Below are positions 29,473 through 36,945 of a stretch of DNA of 64,000 bases, piece after piece. Source of the stretch: Escherichia coli (GTDB lineage Bacteria > Pseudomonadota > Gammaproteobacteria > Enterobacterales > Enterobacteriaceae); the NCBI RefSeq assembly GCF_003334405.1, contig NZ_QOWM01000001.1; one strand, written 5' to 3'. Under the pieces are notes generated by a model. It was not told where the DNA came from. It worked only from the letters and a program-made list of their open reading frames with translations, and ran no database searches. The translations under genes and the position numbers were made by a program. Position 1 is the stretch's first letter, and each line of letters begins with the position of its first letter.

Positions 29473-29506
29473 TGAAAAAGAAGGGATAGTAGATAGACGC
29501 AGAGCG

Positions 29507-30358
29507 TTAAGTGAACTGTGTACGACTATCGCCAAAATACTCTAAACATAACTGCCTGAATTTTGCCCGCCATTCATCGATATTAAAATCATAGCGTTCC
29601 TGAAATGCAGTCGTTTCACTGGACATTATCCAGGCATAATTATGTAACAGGGTTAATGCCTGAAGCGGTTTTCTCTGCGCAAAATAAGTATCAACACACA
29701 TCTGCATCAAGGGGTAATTATTATTTTCCTTTGTTCCTCCAAAGCTAAGATCTAATCCTTGTTCTTTAATGCACTGAATCACAGGATCATCCTGGAAATT
29801 CGGGACATCTGCGGCCTGTGACAGCAAATGAATGACTTTATTGTCAGGAACACCAAATGCCCAATTGCCAAGATAAGCATTAAGCGCAGCCTGTGCTGCA
29901 GCTTCTGTTTTTTTACATCGGCGATACTGGATTGCCAGTGCTAACCAATATTCGCTGACTTCAGGCAATTGTTCTGTTGCTCGCTGTAACAGTGGCAGTG
30001 CGTCATCAAGCCTTCCCGTTGAAAGACATTTCCGAGCAACACGGAAGAGATTTGCTGCAAAGTCTTGATCTTCGATGCTGATGCCATTTTCATGGGGATC
30101 ATCATCATTCACTTCCAGCCATTCTTCGAACTTCTTAATGCTGGAAAAGGCAGGTACGATTCGCCATTCGTCATGGTACGTTTCGCACACTATAGGTAGT
30201 TTATGCTCCTGACCAATAGGCCAGTACAAACCGAAACAGTCTCCGTTACCATATGCTGCATCTGTAAGTACGGTAAATCCGTTCGGAGGAAAAGGCCCCG
30301 GGCAAATTCCATCAATGCCAGGTGAAATATCACTACTGCGAGGAATAAGTTTCATCAT
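29507..30358 (-). CDS. yfbP: Uncharacterised cytoplasmic protein; N-terminal region with SUKH/Smi1-Knr4-like motif pattern (tentative), C-terminal helical repeats
   Basis: 283-aa ORF; no signal peptide or TM segment; Gly/Pro/Trp pattern DGICPGPFPPNGF...GNGDCFGLYWP; low GC. Confidence 0.7.
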   Translation of the reverse strand: MMKLIPRSSDISPGIDGICPGPFPPNGFTVLTDAAYGNGDCFGLYWPIGQEHKLPIVCETYHDEWRIVPAFSSIKKFEEWLEVNDDDPHENGISIEDQDFAANLFRVARKCLSTGRLDDALPLLQRATEQLPEVSEYWLALAIQYRRCKKTEAAAQAALNAYLGNWAFGVPDNKVIHLLSQAADVPNFQDDPVIQCIKEQGLDLSFGGTKENNNYPLMQMCVDTYFAQRKPLQALTLLHNYAWIMSSETTAFQERYDFNIDEWRAKFRQLCLEYFGDSRTQFT

Positions 30359-30413
30359 GTTCCTTCACATAAAAATTTATGTAAACATCCGCTTATCTGT
30401 TTATATAAATGTT

Positions 30414-30890
30414 TTAATCCCACCAACAAGTAACCGGATGCATACCCACAGGGACTTCAACCCATCCATGCTCCGTATCTTCTGACCATCCTTCCCAGCA
30501 CTCATCAGGGGCAATTTCTTCTACAAACCAGCTCTGAACTTCTTCTGGTGAAGCAGTGGTGATAACTAAAATACTTTCACTAAAGGGCCAGTCTGGGTCA
30601 TCGAACATCGTAATTTCTACCAAAACATCACTAACATTGTTACGCTCACGTATTTTCAGAAAATGGTGATAGATAGCTTGCGGAGATTGTTCTGGAATCA
30701 CATTGCAACATATTGAACCATGGATATTATTGTCAATAAAAAAATCCTCAAGAGATAACAATGGACGAGGAGTATCAGGATTATTAACATCACCATTGAT
30801 ATTAACAAGTTGGGTAATGCGTTCTAAAGGTGTCATAATTATTCCCTGAAATAATATATTCATCAAACGAATGACATTGTTTGAATTCAT
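30414..30890 (-). CDS. yfbO: Uncharacterised small acidic Trp-rich protein
   Basis: ORF 30414..30890 (158 aa); an internal ATG (MTPLERITQL..., ~30836) would give ~140 aa; C-terminus ECWEGWSEDTEHGWVEVPVGMHPVTCWWD; 55 bp upstream of yfbP on the same strand. Confidence 0.65.
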   Translation of the reverse strand: MNSNNVIRLMNILFQGIIMTPLERITQLVNINGDVNNPDTPRPLLSLEDFFIDNNIHGSICCNVIPEQSPQAIYHHFLKIRERNNVSDVLVEITMFDDPDWPFSESILVITTASPEEVQSWFVEEIAPDECWEGWSEDTEHGWVEVPVGMHPVTCWWD

Positions 30891-31044
30891 TAGCAGATAA
30901 ATAGTGACAATTCCATACGTATTATTAGTTTCAAGAGCATCATAACATGAATGTTAAGCAGGAAAACGTGAGATATTCAGTCAGGCCGGGTCGTTATCCA
31001 GACGTTGTTATATTTAATATCATAAATATTTAAAGGGGTTTGAC

Positions 31045-31761
31045 ATGGAATGGTTAAGTGAAATTCGTAAACTTCGGAAGAACGTACCTGTCGGTATCCA
31101 GGTTGCCAGACGTTTGTTAGAGAGGACTGGCGGTGATGTTGATGAAGCCATCAAGTTGTTTCATATTGACCAAATCAATATATTGACGGCAAAAGCAGAC
31201 GTCACTCATCAGGAAGCAGAGAATGTTTTGTTGGCTACAAACTATGATATTGCAGAAGCTCTTCGGCGTATTGATGAACAACGCTATACACTGACGGAAT
31301 TGATTTTGCGTAAAAATAAGGATGCCGGAGATGCCTTAAACAATATAGCATTGGCGATTGAATATGAGTGGGATCTCAAGCGTAAGTTTTGGTTTGGTTT
31401 TGCAGATATCCAATTATTACCGCCAGTTTTACAAACATTTATGCTGGTTTATGAATGGCATGAATATGTTGGTTGGGAAGGAATGGAGTGTGGGATATTT
31501 TTTGAAAGTGATCATACTCACCAGCAATTGCAAGCTTTGGGGTTATTAGAACTCGCCCAAAAAATGGTTACTGCAAGAATCCGATATGATGAGCTAAAAG
31601 ACAAGGCCGAAAATTTTCACGAGATTACAGAGGATGACATATTCAAAATGCTTATAATACATTGTGACCAACTTGCAAGAGAGGTTGATTCTATATTACT
31701 GCAATTTGTGAAGGACAATATTGATGTTTTCCCGTGTCGCCATAACAGACACGAGTTATAA
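31045..31761 (+). CDS. yfbN: Uncharacterised protein with two N-terminal UBA/EF-Ts-N-like helical motifs and a Trp-rich core
   Basis: 238-aa ORF; N-terminal IRKLRKNVPVGIQVARRLLERTGGDVDEAIKLF followed by a second similar unit; low GC. Confidence 0.7.
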   Translation: MEWLSEIRKLRKNVPVGIQVARRLLERTGGDVDEAIKLFHIDQINILTAKADVTHQEAENVLLATNYDIAEALRRIDEQRYTLTELILRKNKDAGDALNNIALAIEYEWDLKRKFWFGFADIQLLPPVLQTFMLVYEWHEYVGWEGMECGIFFESDHTHQQLQALGLLELAQKMVTARIRYDELKDKAENFHEITEDDIFKMLIIHCDQLAREVDSILLQFVKDNIDVFPCRHNRHEL

Positions 31762-35476: not shown

Positions 35477-35497
35477 TGACTGTTTAGCAAACTATGT

Positions 35498-35531
35498 TCG
35501 ACCAGTCAGCATATTTGCTGACTGGTCGAAT
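35498..35531. terminator. Bidirectional terminator / perfect inverted repeat between convergent yfbK and elaD
   Basis: ttcgaccagtcagc-atattt-gctgactggtcgaa: perfect 14-bp stem, 6-nt loop, AT-rich flanks on both sides. Confidence 0.6.
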
Positions 35532-35546
35532 TAATTAACAATGATG

Positions 35547-36758
35547 TTAACTCACTCTTTTGCCGGATGCTCTATTTTTGGGTTGTGAGTGTTTTATTTC
35601 TAAGTTTCTATAATAATGATTGATATTTGCATCGCCATATTTATCTAAATAACAATTTCTGTTTGCCAGTCGATGTTGAAAATCAATTTCGTACTGCTCT
35701 TCTGCTGAATATTTTTTAAATCTGTCAGCATAGTTTTTTAATAACGTATAGGGGGCGCTGTCAGAATTGCTTTCCCTTTGTTCAATCACTTCCTGGGCTG
35801 CCATGCACACAAATGCACCGCAACTTTGGCTTAAGTATTGCTGAAGATCGGCATGTAAAAATATTATCTCTGGTTCATTTAAATGAACTTTTATATTATT
35901 ATTCGACATTTCTCCCATGAGTTCAGAATTAAAACTATTAATGACACGCTTAAGTGAATTTTCTTTATCATAGCCTAGTGCACGCAATGAGTTGAATATG
36001 ACGCATTTTATTTGTAGTTTATTATTTTTTTTATTTACTATTTTCTGTAGCGAAACTAATATCCAGTGTCCGCCAGTATTTATGGGGAATAACTGGACTT
36101 CATTCGGCCATGATGGATCGCTCTTAATATTTTCATTGAGAGCGTCTTCCAGGTGAGTTCTGGTGGAGTAGGGGACGTAGAGACCAGTAGGATAATTGAC
36201 TTGAGTATTTTTTGCATTAGCGGCGATCTTCTGAAGATAGCAAGCTATTTCATCTGTGGTTAATTGACGATTTTTATCCCAGAAGTTTGTACCATCACTC
36301 AGTTCATTATTCTCATCATTTAAAAGCACCTTTGAAAGCGACTGTTTTTCAGATATAAGAGGAATTTCATCACCGATAATTGTCATTAATTTCGAAGGGG
36401 AGAATAGTTTTTTGAACAGGAGATCATCTGAATCATGTGATTTGAGGGGGGAGTTGGTTGCGATATGTGCCAGATTATATAATTTTAAACAAGCATTTTT
36501 GATAAGTCGGATAATCGATAGGGTCTCATTTGTTGGGGTTCTAACAATATGGTAAAGAATATCTTCAGCTTCTTTCCCAAATTTATCATAACCTAACGCA
36601 ATATTATGCAGTAACTCAATGCTTTCTTCATCTCCGGATAACGCTGTTTTTTTTAAAGACTGCAGTAATTCCTCGGTCACAGTAAATTTTTCTGCAAATG
36701 TCTGACTGAGTTGCGTTTGAGATAATTGACAATAATTGCTGACAACTGTAACCATCAT
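35547..36758 (-). CDS. elaD: ElaD, CE-clan (Ulp/SseL-like) cysteine protease / deubiquitinase
   Basis: 403-aa ORF; catalytic His in [10 protein letters not shown] and Cys in [12 protein letters not shown]; very AT-rich coding sequence. Confidence 0.85.
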
Positions 36759-36945
36759 GGGCTCCTTTTAGTTGCAAAGGTTGTGCTGAATCAAGATGAA
36801 AAGAGGCAACTTATTGCTCTGAATATAGTGCGTAAGGAGATGAATAAATATCAAAAATCGCTCAATATGCCTGTGTGGGTGGATATATGTAGCGCGGGTT
36901 GCGATAACAGGGCAAGTTTCGCCCTGTTTTTAATAATAAGCAGAG

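Follow-up and report, generated by a model that had tools for sequence, protein, structure and literature searches.

The AT-rich interval between the nuo operon and rbn in Escherichia coli: a probable hotspot of gene gain, replacement and loss

On the E. coli K-12 chromosome, seven genes separate the nuo operon from rbn, and the question raised by this locus is whether they entered as a single foreign island or came together in another way. An earlier note, made from the sequence alone, had described the block as a horizontally acquired, AT-rich island of y-genes plus a protease, bounded by strong terminators. We analysed the window, a stretch of 64 kb whose sequence is identical to K-12-lineage genomes, and compared it with the corresponding loci of other strains and genera. 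Annotation gives the order yfbP, yfbO, yfbN, yfbM, yfbL, yfbK, elaD, as the note had it, and no core functions are annotated among these genes. The features on which the argument depends are as follows.

27966..29423, + strand: nuoN, last gene of the nuo operon and conserved left flank (annotation; 87-100% identity among Enterobacteriaceae loci)
29445..29475, + strand: intrinsic terminator of the nuo operon, a GC-rich stem and a U-run (sequence, folding energy; in all E. coli variants examined)
29472..32032: module 1, the yfbP-yfbO-yfbN cassette, 2,561 bp, GC 0.398 (breakpoints; prevalence)
29507..30355, - strand: yfbP, TPR-repeat protein, only in the K-12-type cassette (Pfam TPR_16, TPR_14)
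30414..30836, - strand: yfbO, small acidic protein (precomputed PF27222 'YfbO' label)
31045..31761, + strand: yfbN, predicted all-helical protein with two N-terminal UBA-like three-helix units and a C-terminal DMP19/DUF4375-like domain (model)
31762..32033, - strand: decayed 3' remnant of an SMI1/KNR4 (SUKH)-type gene, intergenic in the K-12 annotation (alignment to locus L097)
32034..32537, - strand: yfbM, DUF1877 protein, near-universal in E. coli (Pfam DUF1877, E 3e-35; solved structure 1RYL)
32640..33611, - strand: yfbL, M28-family metallopeptidase-like, often internally deleted or frameshifted (prevalence, breakpoints)
33749..35476, + strand: yfbK, lipoprotein-like vWA protein with a YfbK C-terminal domain (domain architecture)
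35450..36942: module 4, the elaD segment, comprising a hairpin, elaD and its upstream region, GC 0.363 (breakpoints; junction haplotypes)
35497..35530: perfect inverted repeat of 15 bp around a 4-nt loop, where yfbK and elaD converge (sequence, folding energy)
35547..36758, - strand: elaD, CE-clan ubiquitin-specific protease of the ElaD/SseL family (NCBIfam NF008812)
36946..37863, - strand: rbn (RNase BN), conserved right flank, followed by elaA, elaB and menF (annotation; menF-elaB-elaA-rbn synteny in Enterobacteriaceae)

Composition and edges of the block

The block at 29480-36945 has a GC content of 0.416, and the lowest value among 833 windows of the same length elsewhere in the 64 kb is 0.4845. 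In 1-kb bins, GC is 0.37-0.47 between 30 and 37 kb and 0.54-0.58 on either side; the intergenic regions inside the block reach 0.26-0.41, and its modules range from 0.363 to 0.472. GC3 is 0.31-0.47 in the seven genes and averages 0.567 over the other genes of the window (Mann-Whitney p=5.5e-7), a reference in which five left-end genes are mis-registered. A CAI-like index, referred to the other genes of the window, is 0.52-0.61 for the block genes and 0.69+-0.05 for the rest (p=1.3e-7). Karlin codon bias (p=6e-4) and the fraction of rare codons (p=3e-4) also set the block apart from the other window genes; one ORF in the codon-usage reference set is spurious, lying antisense to pta, and would if anything have made the comparison more conservative. 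The compositional part of the earlier proposal thus holds, both for GC along the sequence and for codon adaptation, where the block is atypical at p about 1e-7 (GC3 and the CAI-like index). Two observations had been named as speaking against that proposal, flank-like composition and conservation of the block across Enterobacteriaceae, and neither was made.

The edges agree with the earlier description on one side only. On the left, variable DNA begins within the T-tract of the nuo terminator (29471/29472), whose hairpin (29440-29480) has a folding energy of -22.1 kcal/mol (z -6.1 against shuffles) and is followed by a U-run. On the right it runs up to the 3' end of rbn (36945/36946), and no terminator was found at that point. 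The inverted repeat that had been taken for the second boundary is a real hairpin, at -29.1 kcal/mol far more stable than shuffled sequences (z -9.1 and -8.1 for the two strands), but it lies inside the block, between the ends of yfbK (35476) and elaD (35547), and a clean U-tract follows it on neither strand. It is probably a bidirectional transcript-end hairpin; E. albertii, which has no elaD, carries a related hairpin 3' of yfbK. A consensus terminator scan listed neither of the two hairpins.

The earlier statement that no integrase, tRNA or IS footprint is present was borne out. Searches found no tRNA or tmRNA gene in the 64-kb window, no Rfam family, no integrase, transposase or other mobility gene or remnant among the seven block proteins, and no phage homology of the block; its terminal repeats are short, imperfect and unconvincing, and a plasmid search matched only 'plasmid' records that resemble the E. 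coli chromosome. Taken together, these results argue against a hidden IS or transposon remnant in the block. Its junctions fall in the terminator T-tract and beside stop codons, and no recombinase target was recognised there.

The same site in other genera and in other E. coli

The frame menF-elaB-elaA-rbn on one side and nuoN-nuoM on the other is kept across 35 Enterobacteriaceae loci, including those of E. coli, E. albertii, Salmonella, Citrobacter, Enterobacter, Klebsiella and Kosakonia. The gap between rbn and nuoN varies from 55 bp to 8.1 kb, and its GC is below that of the flanks in every one of the 35 loci. In most genera the gap holds cheV; Septu PtuA/PtuB occurs only in Citrobacter sp. 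R56 and a Pseudocitrobacter MAG, other loci carry chaperone-usher fimbriae with an invertase, an IS4 transposase or other ORFs, and some are almost empty (55-94 bp). Neither elaD nor yfbP-yfbO-yfbN was seen here in Salmonella, E. albertii, Superficieibacter or Pseudocitrobacter.

In Salmonella, where the order is rbn-cheV-yfbK-nuoN, YfbK is 69-72% identical to that of K-12, compared with 83% in E. albertii and 66% in Superficieibacter, and the gene is also in place in the Pseudocitrobacter MAG. One Salmonella match runs in two frames and begins at residue 101, so that yfbK may be a pseudogene, or the assembly in error, in that strain. Homologues of yfbL stand at the same site in E. albertii, Superficieibacter and the Pseudocitrobacter MAG. 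With growing phylogenetic distance YfbK and YfbL lose identity at about the pace of the flanking proteins, which points to long-term residents rather than a recent import. The oldest resident is yfbK, and its codon usage is the least atypical of the block (Karlin B 0.314, inside the core range). Its presence in Salmonella, E. albertii and Superficieibacter implies that part of the block is old in spite of its low GC. The yfbM gene is 96-97% identical in E. albertii and in a divergent Escherichia (locus L009), and the latter lacks elaD, an intact yfbK and yfbP-yfbO-yfbN.

Within the species, we estimated prevalence by megablast (coverage >=80%) in 5,426 complete E. coli genomes, a collection biased to clinical and laboratory strains. 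The yfbP-yfbO-yfbN cassette was found in 946 genomes (17%), yfbK in 2,514 (46%), elaD in 4,187 (77%) and yfbM in 5,356 (99%); yfbL was intact in 3,293 (61%), with some form of it in 5,353. At least four modules have breakpoints of their own and vary independently, giving at least seven distinct arrangements of the interval. O111 has no yfbP-yfbO-yfbN, ST131 lacks the cassette and elaD, and O157 lacks the cassette and yfbK and has a frameshifted yfbL with an internal deletion (33024-33349). Many genomes without yfbK keep just its last 40 bp, and in RM14723 yfbK-elaD is deleted except for a 111-bp elaD stub. To a large extent strains differ by deletion and pseudogenisation rather than insertion.

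The two most variable segments

Between nuoN and yfbM at least four alleles were found: empty, yfbP-yfbO-yfbN, yfbO'-yfbN', and yfbO'-yfbN' with an SMI1/KNR4 gene. Most E. coli have about 17 bp of unrelated sequence in place of the cassette; this 'empty' allele could be ancestral, since it is present in the divergent Escherichia L009, or could be a deletion. Two loci (L097 and L098) carry divergent alleles without yfbP. The cassette of L097 is 81% identical to that of K-12 while both its flanks are 97.5-98.6% identical, the pattern expected of cassette replacement between conserved flanks; over the cassette alleles the values are 81-84% between flanks of 97-98%, with yfbO at 88-96% among three alleles. 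YfbP has homologues in Leminorella (65%), Superficieibacter (62%), and Janthinobacterium and Bacteroidota (37-40%), and relatives of YfbP and YfbN are scattered over Leminorella, Superficieibacter, Betaproteobacteria and Bacteroidota. In some strains yfbP is frameshifted. YfbO had no match in a Pfam-A scan, and its AF2 model is unusable (pLDDT 49.7).

The spacer between yfbN and yfbM was also seen to resemble a gene remnant: it aligns with the 3' part and downstream region of an SMI1/KNR4 gene in GDSC2227PM (L097), with recognisable peptide similarity. The L097 ORF bears a RefSeq SMI1/KNR4 label and weak Pfam matches to SUKH_5 and SMI1_KNR4 (E about 1e-3). As a separate observation, YfbN was modelled as a combination of UBA-like and DMP19-like domains, and its C-terminal half diverges fast.

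The elaD of this window is the biochemically characterised K-12 gene, whose product has cysteine-dependent ubiquitin-specific protease activity (PMC1847702, PMC4961225). ElaD scores 455.7 bits against NF008812, above the curated cutoff of 250, and 114 bits against the SseL-specific model, for which the cutoff is 624. By its NCBIfam family name, SseL of Salmonella is a type III effector of SPI-2, whereas no delivery route has been demonstrated for K-12 ElaD; SseL was not seen at the rbn-nuoN site of Salmonella. The elaD junction has three haplotypes, and that of ST131 type consists of an unrelated spacer of about 144 bp. The gene is reported to be missing from phylogroup B2 (PMC12575377) and to be a pseudogene in some B2 strains (PMC1847702). 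For elaD the signs of gain and loss conflict: the elaD-less spacer is shared with the divergent Escherichia L009 and E. albertii also lacks the gene, which favours a later gain of elaD, while the B2 pseudogenes and the RM14723 stub show loss.

Explanations of the interval and comparison with known systems

We consider it likely, with a probability of roughly 0.8, that the interval from the nuo terminator to the rbn 3' end has long been a hotspot of gain, replacement and loss that operates without site-specific mobility machinery, and that K-12 carries a layered mosaic, probably shaped by cassette exchange through flank recombination and by deletions, and perhaps tolerated because of H-NS. The old resident core would be yfbK-yfbL, joined in Escherichia by yfbM, with yfbK predating the split of Escherichia and Salmonella. 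The elaD segment would fill the slot next to rbn, where cheV stands in most other genera, and the stretch from the nuo terminator to the stop codon of yfbM would be a multi-allelic cassette site, occupied in K-12 by yfbP-yfbO-yfbN and the SMI1/KNR4-type remnant. Homologous recombination at two points in the conserved flanks, in nuoN at one end and in yfbM-yfbL or rbn-elaA at the other, may swap or remove cassettes, and illegitimate deletions would add to this. Silencing by H-NS could allow AT-rich, weakly adapted genes to be tolerated, and might account for the low GC that even the old residents keep relative to the genome. Composition, independent polymorphism of the modules, their breakpoints, unrelated cargo in other genera, and widespread deletion with pseudogenisation are the direct observations behind this reading.

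The earlier note had the block inserted as one island of about 7.5 kb, and we would add only that its mobility genes were later lost. The sub-genomic GC and atypical codon usage that run uniformly over the stretch, the want of annotated core functions and an IslandViewer prediction overlapping yfbN suit such an event. Accessory, patchy and compositionally atypical DNA the block certainly is, but a single inserted unit should not have modules that differ in prevalence (17-99%), breakpoints and GC, nor include yfbK and yfbL, which other genera have at the site without elaD and yfbP-yfbO-yfbN; with no terminal repeats, tRNA or integrase remnant, and a right-hand hairpin that proves internal, insertion en bloc seems extremely improbable. 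At the other extreme, the region could be wholly ancestral, its low GC due to weak expression and relaxed selection and its variation to differential loss. Decay is plain in the yfbK and elaD stubs, the yfbL deletion, the frameshifted yfbP and the SMI1/KNR4 remnant, and yfbK and yfbL remain low in GC for all their age. We nevertheless regard descent without any horizontal transfer as quite unlikely in view of the unrelated cargo elsewhere (Septu, fimbriae, IS, cheV), the cassette alleles that differ far more than their flanks, the relatives of YfbP and YfbN in distant taxa, the gaps in Escherichia L009, and SseL, the nearest Salmonella relative of ElaD, which scores far below the family cutoff and was not seen at this site.

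The preferred reading, a hotspot without mobility machinery, has precedents in chromosomal intervals between core genes that take up horizontally transferred DNA without an integrase (Touchon et al. 2009, on E. coli; Oliveira et al. 2017, PMC5635113). The interval shares with these a core-gene frame, short length, fast turnover within the species and lineage-specific content, here of unrelated families, as well as the want of integrase, tRNA and mobile element, and a cargo in which defence genes, adhesins and strain-specific genes of unknown function occur; compared with the usual cargo of such hotspots yfbK, yfbL and yfbM are much more stable. With tRNA-linked genomic or pathogenicity islands the block has in common its atypical GC and codon usage, its patchiness and a virulence-type gene, elaD, but it is small, has no tRNA or tmRNA target, integrase or direct repeats, and its modules have separate histories instead of behaving as a unit. 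It is AT-rich like H-NS-silenced xenogeneic DNA, with intergenic GC down to 0.26-0.31, although some of this DNA has long been resident and is not of recent foreign origin. The evidence for H-NS comes from the literature and concerns yfbN, which two ChIP datasets show bound by H-NS and which rises 2.8-fold when SlyA is over-expressed (PMC5797941). That binding, the island prediction and the patchy distribution of elaD have already been published, and most of the picture is known; we found no paper that names the rbn-nuoN interval itself.

As to function, one reading has the region gathering proteins that act jointly on the ubiquitin system of eukaryotic hosts, the deubiquitinase ElaD and a UBA-like YfbN. 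In the model the YfbN units appear to adopt the three-helix UBA fold. No significant UBA membership was found in the YfbN sequence (best Pfam match UBA_4, E 3e-3; PDB profile matches, E 0.1-0.8), a UBA match appears in 21 of 63 family members only at E 0.1 or weaker than 0.001, and the matches include EF-Ts, a UBA-like fold not tied to ubiquitin. We think a joint action of this kind very improbable.

Another possibility, which we hold as doubtful, is that yfbP, yfbO, yfbN, the SMI1/KNR4 remnant and perhaps yfbM are an orphan array of anti-toxin immunity type that diversifies with toxin repertoires, the DMP19-like DNA-mimic domain of YfbN inhibiting a DNA-targeting toxin. Like orphan arrays of SUKH/SMI1-KNR4 and other Imm genes, this is a short series of small cytoplasmic proteins, one of them perhaps SUKH-like, at a multi-allelic site and with one fast-diverging member; it differs in having no toxin or delivery genes nearby and weak family assignments. 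No toxin, Rhs, CDI or T6SS/T7SS gene was found near the block in the window or in the related loci examined, PADLOC matched none of the seven K-12 block proteins, so that no recognised defence system was found among them, and the main text of a large survey of polymorphic toxins does not mention these proteins. The SUKH call comes from the RefSeq label and the marginal Pfam scores given above, likeness to a DNA mimic is no proof in itself of an immunity role, and the genes are decayed in many strains.

A wider form of this idea, also rather unlikely in our judgement, would make the stretch between the nuo terminator and yfbM a cassette site for orphan interbacterial-immunity-type genes, YfbN a previously unrecognised inhibitor of DNA-targeting toxins beside an SMI1/KNR4 remnant, and the rbn-nuoN gap a hotspot of conflict genes across genera. 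If true, Septu in Citrobacter and Pseudocitrobacter and, in E. coli, immunity-like genes and a host-directed deubiquitinase would share one and the same conflict-gene hotspot.

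Composition and edges of the yfbP-elaD block

The window is a K-12-lineage E. coli chromosome; several K-12 derivatives are 100% identical to it over 10 kb, and MG1655 is 100% identical to the segment 29480-32000. The annotated gene order and the two strong hairpins of the region are as follows:

nuoM-nuoN, flank on the nuo side
29445-29475, nuo terminator, -22.1 kcal/mol, z -6.1, then a U-run
29480-36945, the block: yfbP (-), yfbO (-), yfbN (+), yfbM (-), yfbL (-), yfbK (+), elaD (-)
35497-35530, perfect 15-bp inverted repeat, -29.1 kcal/mol, z -9.1
rbn (-), elaA, elaB, menF, flank on the men side

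The low GC content claimed by the earlier note is borne out. GC is 0.37-0.47 in the 1-kb bins of 30-37 kb versus 0.54-0.58 on either side, and 0.416 for the whole block, when the minimum of 833 equal-length windows elsewhere in the 64 kb is 0.4845. Codon usage also differs from that of the other genes in the window. GC3 of the block genes is 0.31-0.47 versus a mean of 0.567 for the other window genes (p=5.5e-7), and a CAI-like index, built from the window genes outside the block, is 0.52-0.61 versus 0.69+-0.05 (p=1.3e-7); Karlin codon bias and the fraction of rare codons point the same way. GC is not uniform inside the block, being 0.363 in the elaD segment, 0.398 in yfbP-yfbO-yfbN (yfbPON), 0.433 in yfbM-yfbL and 0.472 in yfbK. 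Smaller GC dips were observed at 12001-13000 (0.394, the long alaA-lrhA intergenic region), at 53001-55000 (0.435-0.453 around ais and nudI, with ais at 0.433) and at 6001-7000 (0.448, between ackA and yfbV).

The absence of mobility genes was likewise confirmed. We found no tRNA anywhere in the 64-kb window and no Rfam family, phage homology or convincing terminal repeats for the block, and its plasmid matches were only E. coli chromosome-like records. The proposal that the block is bounded by strong terminators needs amending: both hairpins are real and highly stable, but the second lies inside the block, between the convergent yfbK and elaD and without a clean U-tract, and on the right the variable DNA stops at the rbn 3' end. 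Near the elaD-segment breakpoints at 35450 and 36942, the 3' ends of yfbK (35437-35460) and rbn (36962-36985) contain the two arms of a 24-nt inverted repeat, imperfect at 79% complementarity; as one of 23 similar pairs, it was judged to be due to chance.

Modules and cassette alleles within E. coli

Of 5,426 complete E. coli genomes, only 936 carried at least 80% of the region 28500-38500. When the modules were searched separately, yfbPON was found in 946 (17%). The elaD gene was found in 4,187 genomes (77%) and yfbK in 2,514 (46%), with only its last 40 bp left in many others; yfbM was present in 5,356 (98.7%), and 5,353 had some form of yfbL, which was intact in 3,293 (61%). The combinations vary: an O111 example has no yfbPON, an ST131 example neither yfbPON nor elaD, and an O157 example neither yfbPON nor yfbK, with yfbL frameshifted. 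In some K-12-like strains yfbP is frameshifted. Breakpoints are distinct for each module. The yfbPON module spans 29472-32032, from inside the T-tract of the nuo terminator to one base off the yfbM stop codon, and about 17 bp occupy its position in other genomes. Several strains carry independent IS insertions within the block (ISCro1, ISEcB1, IS903B, IS1, IS2), as expected of AT-rich, dispensable DNA that tolerates insertion. At a larger scale, E. coli O177:H21 (NZ_CP016546.1, locus L008, 10779-12134) has lost lrhA, the whole nuoA-N operon, the entire block and most of rbn; the deletion scar in this one complete genome carries an IS4-family ISVsa5 transposase, and the strain appears to be a natural isolate without NADH dehydrogenase I.

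Three haplotypes were found at the rbn-yfbK junction. In K-12 elaD comes after the hairpin (segment 35450-36942); ST131 has a spacer of about 144 bp, which it shares with a divergent Escherichia genome (Rbn 92% identical) whose yfbK has collapsed; and E. albertii has a spacer that keeps a K-12-like hairpin, without elaD. Absence of elaD from the outgroups suggests that it was gained, yet pseudogenes in B2-type strains (PMC1847702) and the 111-bp stub left in RM14723, where 33662 to 36647 is deleted, show loss as well, so that its polarity is ambiguous.

The yfbPON site also holds divergent alleles. The K-12 type, at least 99% identical, was found in 985 genomes, and forms of 60-90% identity in 27. 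MS1657, with an ST131-like, elaD-less background, has yfbO'-yfbN' and no yfbP, and GDSC2227PM has yfbO'-yfbN' plus an SMI1/KNR4-annotated gene adjoining yfbM. Between GDSC2227PM and K-12 the cassette is 81% identical, compared with 98.6% for nuoN and 97.5% from yfbM to elaD. Among cassette alleles YfbO is 88-96% identical and YfbN only 66-79%, the divergence of YfbN lying mostly in its C-terminal half. The 272-bp yfbN-yfbM spacer of K-12 (31762-32033, minus strand) aligns to the 3' part of the SMI1/KNR4 gene and retains recognisable peptide similarity to it, so that the "intergenic" region is a gene remnant, apparently the decayed 3' end of an SMI1/KNR4 (SUKH)-type gene. The GDSC2227PM copy (locus L097, 6330-6891) is longer than this remnant, yet frameshifted in a poly-C run. 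A role of the nuoN-proximal cassettes as orphan immunity genes, and of ElaD and YfbN as a ubiquitin-directed pair, are leads only.

The rbn-nuoN interval across Enterobacteriaceae

Eighty loci anchored on Rbn were compared. The frame menF-elaB-elaA-rbn...nuoN-nuoM is kept in Enterobacteriaceae and absent in more distant Enterobacterales. The gap from rbn to nuoN varies widely in length. An Enterobacter sp. has 55 bp, a Klebsiella MAG 70 bp and Siccibacter 94 bp; most Citrobacter, Enterobacter and their relatives have about 1.1 kb, several genera 1.8-4.9 kb, and Klebsiella oxytoca, K. indica and Superficieibacter have the longest gaps, of 7-8 kb. The GC of the gap is below that of the flanks in every case.

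The common 334-aa gene adjoining rbn is cheV, coding for a CheW and receiver-domain protein (e.g. L011, 10983-11987), and in most Enterobacteriaceae, Salmonella among them (L092, 8001-9002), this gene lies directly downstream of rbn. No cheV remnant was found in Escherichia, where the slot holds elaD or a short spacer. A Septu PtuA/PtuB pair (PADLOC E-values 7e-173 and 6e-77) occupies the gap in Citrobacter sp. R56 (L020, 12010-13919) and in a Pseudocitrobacter MAG (L024, 8545-10467), so the site can serve as a defence-gene slot. In Klebsiella it holds a chaperone-usher fimbrial operon of about 7 kb, with usher, chaperone and LpfD-like adhesin (K. oxytoca L040, 10973-17941; K. indica L043). 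A FimB/FimE-like tyrosine DNA invertase stands ahead of the operon and points to a fimbria that is phase-variable. Pluralibacter has an IS4 transposase in the gap.

Residents of the K-12 block are found here too. The order is rbn-cheV-yfbK-nuoN in Salmonella Typhimurium (YfbK 69-72% identical, the match split across two frames) and rbn-yfbK-yfbL-yfbM in E. albertii (83%, 80% and 97%), and Superficieibacter has cheV-yfbK-yfbL with homologues of YfbP (62%) and YfbN (49%). Rbn itself is 91% identical in E. albertii, 81% in Salmonella and 74% in Superficieibacter. YfbK and YfbL identities drop with distance about in parallel with it, which is what long vertical residence should give. The precomputed Pfam list for Salmonella Rbn (L092, 7018-7935) includes PF23023 (Anti-Pycsar Apyc1) beside metallo-beta-lactamase families; this label probably stems from the RNase Z/MBL fold that they have in common, rather than from a role in anti-defence.

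A site of repeated turnover

In the rbn-nuoN interval genes have repeatedly been gained, replaced and lost, within a conserved frame and without mobility machinery. What K-12 carries there is a layered mosaic, with old residents among its genes. The block had been read as a single horizontal insertion, and it is indeed accessory, compositionally foreign and devoid of mobility genes. Insertion as one unit is nevertheless contradicted by the separate prevalences (17% to 98.7%), breakpoints and GC of its modules; it is neither one insertion nor all recent. Variation arising by loss only is unlikely, given the unrelated cargo at the same site in other genera and 81%-identical cassette alleles between flanks that are 98% identical. 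For the repeated turnover, we suggest that cassettes may be exchanged through double homologous recombination within the flanking conserved genes, a mechanism put forward for the many hotspots without mobile elements (PMC5635113), with illegitimate deletions alongside. The block may be silenced by H-NS; for yfbN, H-NS silencing, overlap with an IslandViewer island and a response to SlyA have been reported (PMC5797941).

The core facts were known before, from the literature or from standard annotation: the yfbP-elaD stretch of K-12 has its annotation, island-prediction software and H-NS ChIP studies had flagged at least part of it, and two publications have described how patchily elaD is distributed. 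Our additions are modest, namely the cross-genus hotspot picture, the module-level census, the yfbN-yfbM remnant gene and the YfbN fold assignment; the last two provide structural leads on y-gene features of the reference genome, namely YfbN and the yfbN-yfbM spacer. Since some low-GC genes here are old residents and the site has been refilled repeatedly, composition alone is a poor acquisition clock. Low GC at this locus denotes a site, not an event. The interval lies between two conserved operons, and its content has many times been replenished, cut back and partly cleared, in a period that takes in the Escherichia/Salmonella split. As an integrase-less turnover hotspot the locus is a compact example, and its cargo in other genera includes Septu and fimbrial genes.
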